Below, piece after piece: positions 2,736 through 63,079 of a stretch of 64,000 nucleotides of DNA. The notes under the pieces were generated by a model. That model saw nothing but the letters and a program-made list of their open reading frames with translations. It was not told the origin of the DNA and made no database searches. A program made the translations under genes and the position numbers. The first letter of the stretch is position 1; each line of letters begins with the position of its first letter. Origin of the DNA: Octopus vulgaris (taxonomy: Eukaryota). The DNA lies in the NCBI GenBank assembly GCA_951406725.2, contig OX597822.1, positions 83,514,001-83,578,000 of the forward strand, given 5' to 3'.

Positions 2736-3194
2736 AAAATAAAGGGCTTAGTAAAATAAATTACTTTGCCACATACTGAACTCATTAGAAATAGTAGCTA
2801 AAAAAACTTTTTTAAAACTATTTCTAATACTTAAAGAAAATCTCTCTCATATAGTGTTTGCTCAATTCAACTCACGAAAGTATGGGGGTAAAGACATTAA
2901 AAAATCAAATGCAAAGGTTATTTGAGAACGTACGTTTCAAAATTAGTCAACTCGACATTTCTATCATCAGCTCAGAACTCCTTGGTTTGGATTTGAAAAC
3001 ACTGAAAGTGGGAGCATACCCTTTCGGCTTCTTATCGCTTCTGAAGATCTGCTCGAAACTAACAGTGCCAGCAAACCCAAAATATGCAAGCGAAGAATTT
3101 CTGCTCTCCCCTTTCCACCAGCGTGGGTTAAAATCAGTAAACACTATGCTTTTTCGGTAAAATCCGAAGCATTAAATAGAGAGTTGTTGAAATT
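2736..3194 (-). mobile_element. (TA)n-flanked non-coding Penelope-LTR/retrozyme-like unit carrying a hammerhead
   Basis: ~460 bp between two (TA)n tracts; minus-strand 3' end ...AAGCCCTTTATTT; hammerhead at 2923-2974. Confidence 0.65.
2923..2974 (-). ncRNA. Minimal type-I hammerhead ribozyme motif, intact core
   Basis: minus: UGAG CUGAUGA U AGAAAUGUCGAGUUGACUAAUUUU GAAA CGUACG UU/ CUCA; stem I UGAG:CUCA, hairpin stem II, palindromic ACGUACGU stem III. Confidence 0.8.
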
Positions 3195-3244
3195 ATATAT
3201 ATATATATATATATATATATATATATATATATATATATATATAC

Positions 3245-3533
3245 TAGTGGATGCGGTCGGAGTATCGCGGTTTCGATTCCCAGACCGGGAGTTGTGTGTG
3301 TTTATTGAGCGAAAACACCTGAAGCTCCACGATCCTCCGGCAGGGGCTAGTGGCGACTCCTGTGGTACTCTTTCGCCCCAACTTTCTCTCACTCTTTCTT
3401 CCTGTTTTTTTTTAGTAACGTTGTGATGGATTGGCGTCCCGTCCAGTAGGGGGGGGGGATACATATGCCATAGAAACCGGGAAACCGGGGCCATAAGCCT
3501 GACTAGGCTTGAAAAGGGTGCATAAATAAAAAA
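3245..3533 (+). mobile_element. tRNA-derived SINE family C, 5'-truncated, alternative 3' tail
   Basis: B box ggtttcgattccc and body gtttattgagcgaaaacacct..gctcc shared with 29926-30281; tail gatggattggcgtcccgtccag...aataaaaaaa. Confidence 0.8.
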
Positions 3534-3578
3534 ATATATATATATATATATACGTATATATAAAAGGCAAATTAATAA

Positions 3579-3686
3579 ACAAGGGTGCAAATGTGTATCA
3601 GCATTGCTAGAAATAAGCGCTAAAACGACGTGTGGCTACTTTTTACTCTCATTTCTAGCAATGCCGGTACTAATTTGTACCCTTGT
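3579..3686. repeat. Small fold-back element next to (TA)n
   Basis: outer arms acaagggtgcaaat / atttgtacccttgt (13/14); inner perfect 14-bp arms gcattgctagaaat (3601-3614) / atttctagcaatgc (3651-3664). Confidence 0.8.
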
Positions 3687-3729
3687 ATATATATATATAT
3701 ATATATATATATATATATATATATATATT

Positions 3730-4185
3730 TGAGGCAGAATTTTGTCCGTAAAATATACGTATAGTTTCCGAGGGAAAAATGTTTGATAACATCAAATGCA
3801 TCCATCATCCTGATTAAAATAGGGTAAAATATTTAATTACAATTCATCAGTCAGAACATTATAACTATCGCACACCTAGTAACACTATTAATTGTTGAAT
3901 CAACAACTATCATCATACCATATCGCACTCCTAGTAATACTATTAATTGTTGAATCAACAACTATTATCATACCATATCATATCTGATATGATATGGTAT
4001 GATAATAGTTGTTGATTCAACAATTAATAGTATTACTAGGAGTGCGATAGTTATAATGTTCTGACTGATGAATTGTAATTAAATATTTTACCCTATTTCA
4101 ATCAGGATGATGAATGCATTTGATGTTATCAAACATTTTTCCCTCGGAAACTATACCTATATTTTACGGACAAAATTCTGCCTCA
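3730..4185. repeat. Near-perfect 456-bp palindrome (200-bp arms, 1-nt spacer, 55-bp tandem duplication in left arm)
   Basis: tgaggcagaattttgtcc... mirrored by ...ggacaaaattctgcctca; centre atatc-t-gatat at 3985; duplicated unit 3866-3920 / 3921-3975. Confidence 0.95.
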
Positions 4186-59058: not shown

Positions 59059-59491
59059 GGCGCAGGAGTGGCTGTGTGGTAAGTAGCTTGTTTACCAACC
59101 ACATGGTTCCGGGTTCAGTCCCACTGCGTGGCACCTTGGGCAAGTGTCTTCTGCCATAGCCTCGGGCCGACCTAAGCCTTCTAAGTAGATTTGGCAGATG
59201 GAAACTGAAAGAAGCCTGTCATACATATGTATATATATATATATATATATATATATATATATATATATGCGTGTCTGTGTTTGTGTGTCTCTGTTTGTCC
59301 CCCTAGCATTGTTTGACAACCGATGCTGGTGTGTTTACGTCCCCGTTCAATAGCGGTTCGGCAAAAGAGACCGATAGAATAAGTACTGGACTTACAAAAG
59401 AATAAGTCCCGGGGTCGAGTTGCTCGATTAAAGGCGGTGCTCCAGCATGGCCGCAGTCAAATGACTGAAACAAGTAAGAGTAAAAAGAGAG
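59059..59491 (+). mobile_element. Family-A tRNA-derived SINE, full length (reference copy)
   Basis: A box tggctgtgtgg, B box gggttcagtccc, internal (TA)n, tail gactgaaacaagtaagagtaaaaagag. Confidence 0.95.
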
Positions 59492-59944
59492 TATATTTGT
59501 GTTGGGACTTAAAACTCATATTTTCCAAACCCGATACAAGTAACAGTTGGTTACTCTTTCCTGTAATACTTCTCCCCCCACTCATCCACCCACTGTGCTT
59601 GTAGCAATAACAAATAAATTATTTTTCTTAGCACTTTTGCTGCTTTCTGTTATTGGTGTCTAACCTGAATAACCTATGTAACTCAACTGAATTGCGGATA
59701 GAAAACATTATCACACTTCCAGGCTCTCAGATAATATTTTCCATTAATTTTTCGGAAAAAAGGTCAAGATACCATGCGAAACAGTTTATTAGAGTAATAA
59801 GTACACACACAAACATGCGCGCACACACACAGAAAGACAAACACACACGCATACATACATACACATAAACACAAACATTTAGATATATGTTATACATTAT
59901 ATATATTATAGCATATATATATGTGTGTGTGTATATATACATAT

Positions 59945-60358
59945 ACTCTTTCTCTTTACTCATTTACTTGTTTCAGTCATTTGACTGCGGCCATGCTGGA
60001 GCACCGCCTTTAGTCGAACAAATCGACCCCGGGACTTATCCTTTGTAATCCCAGTACTTATTCTATCGGTCTCTTTAGCCGAACCGCTAATTGACTGGGA
60101 CGTAAACACACCAGCATCGGTTGTCAAGCGATGTTAGGGGGACAAACACAGACACACAAAAACACACACACATACATATATATATACATATATACGACAG
60201 GCTTCTTTTAGTTTCCGTCTACCAAATCCACTCACAAGGCATTGGTCGGCCCGGGGGCTATAGCAGAAGACACTTGCCCTAGATACCACGCAGTGGGACT
60301 GAACCCGGAACCATATGGTTGGTTAGAAAGCTACTTACCACACAGCCACTCCTGCGCC
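59945..60358 (-). mobile_element. Family-A SINE, full length
   Basis: reverse complement of 59059-59491; the two copies face each other ~450 bp apart. Confidence 0.95.
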
Positions 60359-60487
60359 TATTCACGCACACACACATACACACACATACATACACATACA
60401 CACACGCACGCACACACACACACACACACACACACACACACACACACACACACACACACATATATATATATATGTTAATGTTTGGCG

Positions 60488-60561
60488 TAACCGCTGATGA
60501 GAACTTCGCCTTGTAAATTAATTTATTTGCTAATTACAGTTCGAAATCTAAGCTCCGGCTA
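60488..60561 (+). ncRNA. Hammerhead motif in a (TA)n-flanked ~245-bp unit (60473-60718)
   Basis: UAACCG CUGAUGA GAACU...AGUUC GAAA UCUAAGC UC/ CGGCUA; canonical G10.1:C11.1; stem III one change from AGCU.AGCU. Confidence 0.75.
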
Positions 60562-63079
60562 TAAAACATGGTAATTTTTATTTTTTTATTTTTCATTCCT
60601 TTGAAATTGCTCTTAACTGTGATTTTGATTTTTTGACTGTTCCTTCTAGCATGTAGGGTGACCTGTTAAGGCTCACCTCTTTTTGTGTTTAAATGTACAC
60701 TTATTTTCATATGAAAAAATATATATATATATGAATATATGTATGTATGCACGTACATACATAGAAATATGTGCAAACATAAGTTCTTATCCAATGTACG
60801 TGGCTGATCCAACCTCAGGATTGTTCCAGGAATGATGTTTGGATAAAGAACACAAGTGTTTAAATATTTACAACGGCTGTTTCAGCAGCATTATTTGCTG
60901 ACGACTTCTTCGATTACGTCATGCAAAAAATTTGCGCACAACACGTGAATACAAAATTACAATCACATAGAAAATTCGAATTGACCTGCTTGGTAACTGC
61001 TTAGCACGACATATATATCTGTGTGTGTATGTGAGTATGTGTGGCGTCTGTGTGTATGTGTGCGAGTGGGATGAGTGCGCTAGTGTGTATATTATAAATA
61101 TAAAAAACGCAAGCTGAAAAACCATATTCACACAAACACACACAAACACACACAGACGCACATACGCACGCACACACACACACACACACACACACACACA
61201 CACACACACACACACACACACACAAAGAAAAAAGAATTGTCACTTACAGTTTGATAGTAAAGTATTTCTCTCGCTTTCTATTGGATATCCTTTTCGCTTA
61301 ATATCTACAAAACATAAACAGGGATAAAACAATGTCAGATGAATAATAAAGGAAGTAGTTTTTGTAACGAGAGCCACAAAATCATCATCATCATCATCAT
61401 CATCATCATCATCATCATTATTATTATTATTGATATTATCCTTATATACACTCTACAATGTATATTAAACGTTTTTATAAGTCAACAGTTCTACTGTGTT
61501 AGCAGTGCTATCACATCACTTGTTAAAATTATCTCTGCAGATTTCCAATAGAAATAATGGCCACCTCTGATTTTCTTACAACCTTTCGTATTTTCGTATC
61601 CGAGACGCTTAATGTAAACCACAACGAGATCGAAGATAAAAAAAAATGGGTAATGGGCGTATATACCATTCTACAAACTCTTTGCTTAAGCAGCCACTAA
61701 ATACAGTGCTGTAACGTGACCTGAAGCTGGTATGTAAATATTAATGACTTGTAGGAACAGCGAGTTTGGCTATTTGTATCGGTTTTCTTTGGTTCTGAGA
61801 TATTTCTGGAGACTTATGGTAGATGTTTTTATTGTAGTTGTCTAGCTTATAGTGCTTTTGAAGAATATATATATTCTAACACCGGGTTGTTCGCATCGCT
61901 ATAACTAAATGGAATATTGACATAAAACACACACACGCACACGCTTGCACACATGGACACGCATACACACACACACAAACACACACATATAAAATATGAA
62001 TGCAGTGTATTTTAGTTGAAGTTTTGCTACTACGTTTCCATAGCATTGCTTTTACATAATTGTATTGTACATAACACATTAATGAAGAAATGTTATGGAA
62101 ACATGAGTCGCATAATTCAACAAAATCCACGCTATTCATAATCTTTTATTATTTTTGTACCGCATTAAATGTGCATTGTGTTGCTACACCCATCAGATTT
62201 GCGAAGTGCTTAATATCATTTAACTACATAATATTGCCTGGTTTGTTCTGTTGATTGGATGATACATTGGAAATATGACTGTTATTCCTCCAGAGTACCG
62301 TGTTAGACAAATACACAGTGCAGTGCTACTGAGTTATTTGCCACGATCATTGAGATACCCGTTACTTTACACTCACTCACTCATACACACACAGACACAC
62401 ACATACACACATACACACACACACACACACACACACACACTCATACATATATATATATATATGTATGTCGATGTACAATAGTATACTAAAGCTTTATGTA
62501 CATCTGCTGACTCATTTTCAATTCTTGAGAGGAAAAAGACGTTTTGTAAATATGTGATAATCCATCTGTGTTAGAAAATGATAATATAAAACTACAATGA
62601 AACTTCAGTGTCCAGATAAACCACTGGATAGAACATAAGAACCCTCACATAATTTTTCCTTTGCTAAAATGGCAATTATTGACTAATAGTCGATTTAGGA
62701 ATACCGAATTACTATTATTACGCTTTGTAGAAGCGAGTTAGAATCATATCCGTTAAAGAATACATCAATGGTCGACTTTGAAACCGATTCAACGGCGATG
62801 ATGCATAACCATGTATGATTAGGCCACTAATCAAAGCCTCTATTCTTGCAAATCTGCTCTTAAGGTGTCCCTAAATCCCTGTGTAGTTCGTTTACATAAT
62901 CCATTAATTCATCACTCGTTATACGAAAAACTGTGATGAATCAAACTAACACATAAACAACCAATACATAAGTAAATAAAACAACTTATATAACACAAGG
63001 AAATGACAAAATCGCAAACTTTGTTTTTAGTTGTTTAAAAGTCATGTATTAAAGTTCTAGAATGAATATTTATTAACCT

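Follow-up and report, generated by a model that had tools for sequence, protein, structure and literature searches.

Hammerhead motifs in an octopus genomic window

The stretch of DNA analyzed here, called the window throughout, is 64 kb of the Octopus vulgaris genome (contig OX597822.1, positions 83,514,001 to 83,578,000; the genome assembly comprises 2.80 Gb in 227 contigs). It has a GC content of about 35%, is rich in microsatellites, and contains a series of repeats that carry type-I hammerhead ribozyme motifs and often adjoin (TA)n tracts. A sequence-only reading of the window had listed nine clear type-I hammerheads and several decayed ones, and when the letters of the window were checked, the cores were found within about 110 nt of the positions given. 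At eight of the nine sites the conserved nucleotides (NUGANNA, GAAA and UH) and stems I to III stand in type-I order above chance, and the motif belongs to a high-copy family. The ninth, given as 49362 and with its core at 49421, has weak stems and may be a chance match or very old; a genome search with this region recovered only itself. The decayed motifs at 11575, 27231 and 32068 also lie in abundant families, but the one at 43243 proved to be the end of an autonomous Penelope-like element. The sites are as follows, with S and L standing for the short and long 3' ends of a family.

2737..3193, minus strand: young family C copy (560-nt monomer), hammerhead core 2970-2964, H17 2927; its main arm meets (TA)n at the S junction, 2737
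3183-3193: inverted arm of the same family C copy, 11 nt, carrying the L end
11500..11666, plus strand: family J, minimal hammerhead, core 11581, stem III decayed in this copy
11540-11572/11634-11666: inverted arm of family J
24534..24936, minus strand: family D copy (monomer of about 552 nt), stopping at the L junction; hammerhead core 24886, H17 24824
27233..27266 (approximate bounds), minus strand: decayed minimal hammerhead of an abundant family, commonest family core CCGACGA (U4C)
32068..32100 (approximate bounds), plus strand: decayed hammerhead-like motif of an abundant family, family core mostly CUGUNGA (A6U)
32872..33529, plus strand: family E copy of 1.25 monomers (period about 524 nt), stopping at the S junction; hammerhead core 33302, H17 33365
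38947..39185, plus strand: family A fragment (monomer of about 500 nt), stopping at the S junction; hammerhead core 38961, H17 39007
39830..40049, minus strand: family G fragment (period about 462 nt), hammerhead with GUGAACA core (G3-C8) at 40022, H17 39986
42487..42717, minus strand: family I fragment, hammerhead with long stem II, core 42674, H17 42578
43070..43760, minus strand: 5'-truncated remnant of an autonomous Penelope-like element, with the broken GIY-YIG coding end, the 3' region and a decayed hammerhead (core 43267-43261)
46916..47405, minus strand: family B copy of one full monomer (about 478 nt), stopping at the S junction; hammerhead core 47109, H17 47062
49358..49425, minus strand: weak hammerhead-like match, core 49421, H17 49365, not counted as a family member
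60473..60718, plus strand: family F fragment, stopping at the S junction; hammerhead core 60494, H17 60555, stem III decayed

Evidence that most of these motifs are not chance matches came from comparison with shuffled DNA. Against 200 local dinucleotide shuffles of the window, a loose type-I descriptor gave five matches (shuffle mean 0.58, maximum 4) and a strict one gave two (mean 0.095, maximum 1). The loose matches included one at 5864 that is absent from the sites listed earlier and looks like chance. The CUGANGA string alone occurred 38 times in the window and 22 times in shuffles (maximum 38). A blind sample of 400 kb, taken as 40 pieces of 10 kb with round coordinates and searched with any base allowed at core positions 3 and 8, contained 30 type-I motifs in about 20 separate insertions, compared with about two per shuffle (12 shuffles). 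Because the same descriptor gives four matches in the window, the motif density of the window is ordinary. Extrapolation suggests a genome total of roughly 1-2x10^5 hammerhead motifs, with a wide error since matches cluster. The sequence-only reading had raised the possibility of a very large ribozyme population, and an order of 10^5 motifs agrees with it.

Families of short monomers lacking an open reading frame

Genome searches with the window copies returned 1,515 candidates for family A (site 38961; 82-87% identity), 3,179 for B (47109; 89-94%), 2,355 for C (2970; 99-100%), 2,484 for D (24886), 1,370 for E (33302), 1,857 for F (60494), 3,664 for G (39976), 1,431 for I (42566) and 1,967 for J (11575). 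These are lower bounds rather than copy numbers, and the best 40 candidates per family search were scored. Most motifs in the window had been described as sitting in 200-500-bp units bounded by (TA)n and lacking an open reading frame (ORF). The units are indeed ORF-less and (TA)n-associated, and the ORF listing of the window showed no coding frame in the hammerhead units. However, (TA)n is not present everywhere (sites 39976 and 11575), and the units are permuted fragments of 460-560-nt monomers, not whole elements. Relatives of family J lie mostly directly after (TAA)n tracts.

The monomer lengths were taken from natural tandem repeats, with periods of about 500 nt in family A, 478 in B, 560 in C, 552 in D, 524 in E and 462 in G (one case); in family F, the 5' extension wraps onto the element's own end. 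Families A, B, C, D, E and G, and F by this wrap, thus consist of short, tandemly repeated monomers that each have a single type-I hammerhead, as non-LTR retrozymes do. The 5' ends of the families are scattered and circularly permuted. Arrays of 13 and 5 full units, with an inverted arm, were found for family C, and the units of these arrays carry common rare variants. The family C monomer is predicted to fold far below shuffled sequences (z -6.6). When the variants of the 13-unit array were checked for the period expected of a multimeric circle, no period was seen. None of the sequencing runs listed as containing the family C monomer is recorded as RNA. Contigs of four runs, three of them guessed to be RNA, span the monomer; such contigs are uninformative on expression, ends and circles.

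The sequence-only reading had also suggested looking for linked reverse transcriptase and GIY-YIG frames. A tblastn search with a Penelope-like protein matched 8 of 174 family loci, none with an ORF continuous with a monomer, and an ORF with reverse transcriptase plus GIY-YIG was not present in families A-G, I and J across these 174 loci. An ORF adjoining a family E array (locus L234) was considered as the partner and rejected, as it belongs to another, truncated element that has a 3' end and a hammerhead of its own. Derivation from tRNA or 5S short interspersed elements (SINEs) was also rejected: the 5' ends are scattered, and no tRNA or 5S match was among the 150 of 201 Rfam matches listed for the window. 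Nor was any hammerhead among those 150, nearly all of which were microsatellite-driven microRNA matches. Taken together, the hammerhead-bearing repeats are very probably non-autonomous Penelope-like elements, that is, non-LTR retrozymes.

Several further families were seen alongside. Those at window positions 32000-32190 (CUGUNGA) and 27120-27330 (CCGACGA) are very abundant and have mostly non-canonical cores, which suggests that they may have spread after loss or change of ribozyme activity. The blind sample contained a young retrozyme family with a 359-nt monomer (L242:2100-4780), in five tandem units plus a two-unit inverted arm, with a compact canonical hammerhead and one short and one long end. 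Another family, related to C and D (L243:4713-6000), has a long stem II and the same 3' element as is described below.

Two fixed 3' ends and inverted insertions

In every family, the 3' junctions fall into two clusters, S and L, which lie 67-120 nt apart and in most cases run into (TA)n. The predicted ribozyme cut is well upstream of both; in family C the cut is at 257, S at about 450 and L at 552. Ends within about 20 nt of a junction cluster were assigned to it, and duplicate loci of one place were counted once. By this rule, 62 of 69 head-to-head insertions have one arm ending at S and the other at L (10 in family A, 11 in B, 18 in C, 5 in D, 9 in E, 4 in F, 2 in G and 3 in I). One has both arms at S, and six have one arm at neither site, so that S pairs with L in 62 of the 63 inverted insertions in which both ends are defined. 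Since most searches favored one arm, the survey was repeated with a probe upstream of both S and L; in this sample all eight inverted insertions were S+L, and single arms stopped at L in four cases and at S in three. The same pairing was seen in the window copy at 2737-3193, in the L242 family, and in one autonomous insertion (L236, S plus tail).

The two arms of one insertion carry the same variants, which are rare in the family. Because rare variants are shared by both arms, and likewise by the units of an array, each set derives from one template or donor. Ten inverted pairs are not nested, each arm having sequence that the other lacks (L002, L073, L077, L078, L143, L145 and four of seven simple pairs in the upstream-probe sample). 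TA-like sequence is present at both junctions.

A common RNA element at the 3' end

When the end regions were folded, a helix (P1) enclosed S and a hairpin (P2) stood just before L. When 11 copies representing seven families (A-F plus one blind-sample family) were aligned with MAFFT, both P1 and P2 fell into register, and RNAalifold predicted them unaided, with a double change in 13 of 18 pairs. For 15 named pairs, 89% of cells can pair and nine pairs change on both sides, a number reached by none of 500 shuffles; controls in which the pairing was slid gave one to four. The changes that separate families include C-G/U-A, A-U/G-C and G-C/A-U. Stem covariation was compared between families rather than counted within them, because copies decay after insertion. 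A CCCT motif before both ends resembles a reverse telomeric repeat; this likeness was set aside, since at the L end the closing strand of P2 accounts for the motif.

Because compensatory changes in a common P1/P2 separate the families, A-F are, on the evidence of the alignment, one diverged superfamily with a homologous, covarying 3' element. The P1/P2 evidence covers families A-F and the blind-sample family. These data do not support the earlier proposal of many independent lineages. The related claim that stems are unrelated between copies was partly true, but the 38961 and 47109 copies are 69% identical over 301 nt, the 2970 and 24886 copies are 78% identical over 86 nt, and the 3' structure is common to them.

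Core sequences and the 3-8 pair

The cores also speak against chance matching. Among the 30 blind motifs, positions 3 and 8 were C-G in 21, U-A in five, G-C in one and C-A in three, and are therefore a Watson-Crick pair in 27 of 30. The canonical core prevails in relatives (CUGAAGA in 25 of 31 family A matches; CUGAUGA in 117 of 131 family C matches), and relatives of families F and J have intact stem pairing where the window copies have lost it. In families A-F stem II is longer and contains an internal loop that ends in UAA, and stem III has 3-4 bp.

The site at 39976 on the minus strand had been read as a CUGANGA-type motif. The motif is real and belongs to a high-copy family, but its core is GUGAACA, a G3-C8 swap found in 14 of 25 fuzzy-pattern matches across 13 relatives; the remaining printed matches resemble off-target noise. 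C3G/G8C is known as a partly active engineered double mutant (PMC11167929), and natural U3-A8 cores have been described (PMC3088659). An intact autonomous Penelope-like family in the octopus has a U3-A8 core. One autonomous insertion (L101/L235) has an A3-U8 core in each of its arms, and a decayed A3-U8 core lies at 43243; this is thin evidence for a further variant.

The family G copy in the window is contained in a Tc1/mariner-like element (39778-40250) with terminal inverted repeats starting TACAGGGTG.

Autonomous Penelope-like elements in the same genome

A GIY-YIG search gave 6,136 candidates, and at least 15 of the 150 scored lie in 781-aa open frames; six fetched copies hold the intact 781-aa ORF. 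One such element, studied in detail, has reverse transcriptase and GIY-YIG matches, a CX4CXXC linker, 456-nt pseudo-long terminal repeats (pseudo-LTRs), a hammerhead and a (TA)n end. A search of PDB found no relative of the 781-aa protein. The copies at L111:430-5672 (G000:C16:20834500+) and L112-L116 represent a Neptune-type Penelope-like element whose intact 781-aa ORF, present in many copies, suggests that it is apparently active. Upstream in this element lies an open frame, at most 479 aa long, that overlaps the 781-aa ORF in some copies, and a long repetitive 3' region is accompanied by the U3-A8 hammerhead and a tail of about 35 nt. An inverted retrozyme insertion related to families A and B lies right at the 3' tail of one intact autonomous element (L112:5532-5954).

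A model for insertion by double priming

These observations are consistent with a model, to which we give a probability of about 0.7 as a whole, in which the families are ORF-less repeats that a Penelope-type reverse transcriptase/endonuclease inserts into (TA)n by priming twice. Tandem copies would be transcribed, and the hammerhead, with its palindromic stem III and probably acting as a dimer, would cut the transcripts to monomers, which are likely circularized. A protein dimer would then bind the P1/P2 element and nick both strands of a TA tract. Each nick would prime reverse transcription at one of S and L on the same RNA, and synthesis would pass the ribozyme site and continue round the monomer. 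Joining of the two complementary DNAs at their far ends would give inverted arms, or a single arm if only one of the two succeeds. Priming at both S and L on one template is probable when taken by itself; that the template is a covalently closed circle rather than an uncut multimer is only slightly favored.

Support for such a mechanism came from in vitro work on a Penelope-like protein, which cuts and extends both strands, uses two internal start sites that define the tail, and is predicted to form a dimer (PMC11167929). The same study provides points that weigh against the double-priming model: the use of start sites did not differ between the strands, cleavage was not needed in vitro, and no reads ended at the cut. 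Several genomic data weigh against it as well. No pseudo-LTR homologous to A-F was found in 37 GIY-YIG loci, the three longest 781-aa elements among them, or in eight longer stretches that the partner search also covered, a small sample of the 6,136 candidates; the 3' end of one autonomous clade resembles that of the families by eye only. The sequence-only proposal of Penelope-mobilized RNAs in TA microsatellites is upheld in its insertion anatomy (partial tandems, inverted arm, one-end tail, microsatellite target). The S/S insertion L204 and the six insertions with one arm at neither site are exceptions to S+L pairing, and in the autonomous insertion L235 the two ends are alike. Of the 49 family C 5' ends, only 3 lie at the predicted cut (258-261), and other positions show clusters that are just as tight. 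Some variants in the 13-unit array recur in non-adjacent units, and therefore later homogenization also acts. The covariation controls are inflated by the relatedness of the 11 aligned sequences, which are also the ones on which the structure was first noticed. Finally, the anatomy of the insertions is observed, and transcription, cleavage, circularity, dimer binding and the identity of the partner are steps that we infer from it.

The strongest alternative retains double priming and proposes that a donor array supplies the template as a linear multimeric transcript that stays uncut, with the hammerhead dispensable for insertion and serving only to trim or limit transcripts. Most arms continue past the predicted cut, and arrays large enough to act as donors are present. 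Moreover, ribozyme mutants were without effect on insertion in vitro (PMC11167929), and eight of nine Xenopus dimers were uncleaved (bioRxiv 10.64898/2026.07.22.740005). While these data fit an uncut template, core and stems are preserved, with compensatory changes at the 3-8 pair, across many families that have diverged. In addition, circles are the form in which animal retrozymes accumulate (PMC7229834), and arms often exceed one monomer in length even though only a minority of donors have several units. We consider this alternative rather unlikely.

It has also been proposed, for Penelope elements (PMC3846280) and with respect to the tail (PMC8557442), that inverted arms arise by fold-back. 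Applied to the octopus families, self-priming by fold-back, possibly on an antisense template, would make the arms, local unequal crossover the arrays, and resolution by the endonuclease the S/L asymmetry. The arms of an insertion do share variants, many pairs are nested, and a few junctions are palindromic (L067). A fold-back arm must sit within the first arm, however, and the ten pairs described above are not nested; in addition, the longer arm can bear either end, and single arms stop at S or L about equally. The S+L rule, the common variants and the non-nested arms together argue against fold-back, which we regard as improbable, and favor double priming on a single RNA, whether circular or multimeric.

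Equally improbable is the view that the units form no separate class and are solo pseudo-LTRs, that is, heavily 5'-truncated autonomous Penelope-like copies. This holds for the 43243 motif and is possible for families I and J, as periods are available for the others only. Many of the GIY-YIG candidates have hammerheads and (TA)n ends, and most single minimal hammerheads have been ascribed to truncated elements (PMC4209133). Against this view, the 5' extension of families A-G wraps into the monomer's own 3' end, pure ORF-less arrays exist, and no coding extension was found in the 174 loci (best 40 candidates per search). Chance matching in AT-rich repetitive DNA, which fits the single-copy 49421 site and the extra match at 5864, has a negligible probability as a general account and is already refuted for eight of the nine sites by the blind-sample excess, by Watson-Crick 3-8 pairs where 16 combinations were allowed, and by relatives that restore pairing lost in window copies.

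Comparison with known systems

The kind of element described here is already known (PMC7229834; bioRxiv 10.64898/2026.07.22.740005; PMC4209133). Non-LTR retrozymes were recently described as non-autonomous derivatives of Penelope-like elements in a survey of 35 genomes that includes no mollusc (Li, Clavereau and Pollet 2026, bioRxiv 10.64898/2026.07.22.740005). Like the animal retrozymes of that study and of Cervera and de la Pena 2020 (PMC7229834), the octopus families are ORF-less and low in GC, carry a type-I hammerhead, and occur as monomers, dimers and arrays in a genome that also holds Penelope-like elements; in both cases a circular intermediate has been proposed. The monomers are 460-560 nt here, whereas published retrozymes are typically 150-450 nt, with a range of 51-972 (bioRxiv 10.64898/2026.07.22.740005). 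In the available text of these two papers, (TA)n targeting, two fixed ends, inverted arms, a common 3' structure and a cephalopod host do not appear. Conversely, autonomous elements with a homologous pseudo-LTR were reported in 21 Xenopus cases by Li, Clavereau and Pollet, and none was found here in the GIY-YIG loci and longer stretches compared.

There are also parallels with autonomous Penelope-like elements. Inverted arms, a 30-40-bp tail often at one end, and (TA)n targets have been reported for Penelope-like elements (PMC8557442). Neptune-type elements (PMC8557442, PMC3846280) and the PAc Poseidon element (PMC11167929) have in common with the octopus families partial tandems, an inverted 5'-truncated arm, a one-end tail, a preference for (TA)n, two internal starts and a hammerhead upstream of the ends. 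The octopus families differ in having no ORF and a tail of about 67-120 nt, compared with 30-40 nt in Neptune-type elements (PMC8557442). The Penelope tail is optional on one inverted repeat (PMC3846280), in contrast to the S+L pairing in 62 of 63 cases here, and PAc starts have no homology to the target (PMC11167929), unlike the TA-like sequence at both junctions here.

Minimal hammerheads, including a U3-A8 form, and a circular-template hypothesis were described for metazoan Penelope-like elements (PMC4209133). A palindromic stem III, an extra base after A9, high heterogeneity within families and the U3-A8 variant are found in both those hammerheads and the present ones; families A-F differ in the longer stem II, the UAA-ending internal loop and the 3-4-bp stem III.

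For cephalopods, an octopus repeat annotation lists 31 recently active Penelope-like families, and the words "hammerhead" and "ribozyme" are absent from its main text (PMC13282606); 235 Rfam hammerheads were reported for the giant squid (PMC6962438). In the literature on cephalopod hammerheads, core variants, and tails or inversions, covered mostly through the main texts of open-access papers, we found no description of these families, of strict S+L pairing or of a natural G3-C8 core. Repeat databases may already list the families under other labels. What the families add to the known kind is a longer structured tail, the near-strict pairing of two start sites, and an unusual core.

Other repeats in the window

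The window also contains a 500-bp near-perfect palindrome (3708-4207) with a 55-bp internal tandem, which adjoins (TA)n and has at most one short match among the fetched loci. Old inverted-repeat elements with 70-79% arm identity lie at 14773-15224, 2442-2564 and 19210-19546, and are possibly miniature inverted-repeat transposable elements. No convincing hammerhead was found in the palindromes at 3708-4207, 14773-15224 and 19210-19546. Two very abundant SINE-like families are present, one at 33528-34031, 46274-46660, 53043-53509, 59051-59503 and 59899-60361, and the other at 6228-6537, 47572-47959, 51368-51614 and 53538-53745. Broken reverse transcriptase fragments of long interspersed elements lie near (TAA)n-type tracts at 58554-58874 (minus strand), 63494-63964 (plus strand) and 56903-57256 (minus strand).

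Implications for retrozymes and Penelope-like elements

It was known before that animal hammerhead retrozymes are moved by Penelope-like elements; how these RNAs are recognized and inserted, and how the inverted arm and one-sided tail arise, was unsettled. The S+L pairing and the non-nested arms from one template are countable genomic evidence on this point, and P1/P2 is a candidate cis element. The roughly 10^5 hammerhead motifs suggested for the octopus genome offer natural variation at the 3-8 pair, and none of them appeared among the 150 of 201 Rfam matches listed for the window. A family C with 99% identity, intact 781-aa ORFs in the same genome and a published in vitro system make double priming directly testable.

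We propose, tentatively and at somewhat less than even odds, that the retrozyme superfamily is still active and that P1/P2 docks a Penelope-type dimer, whose two active sites would prime at two points of one circle, one per nicked strand. If so, no fold-back would be needed to explain why Penelope-like elements generally have head-to-head arms and a tail on one side, the cis signal by which animal retrozymes borrow their enzyme would be identified, and a G3-C8 core, possibly also an A3-U8 core, would be added to the hammerheads found in nature.

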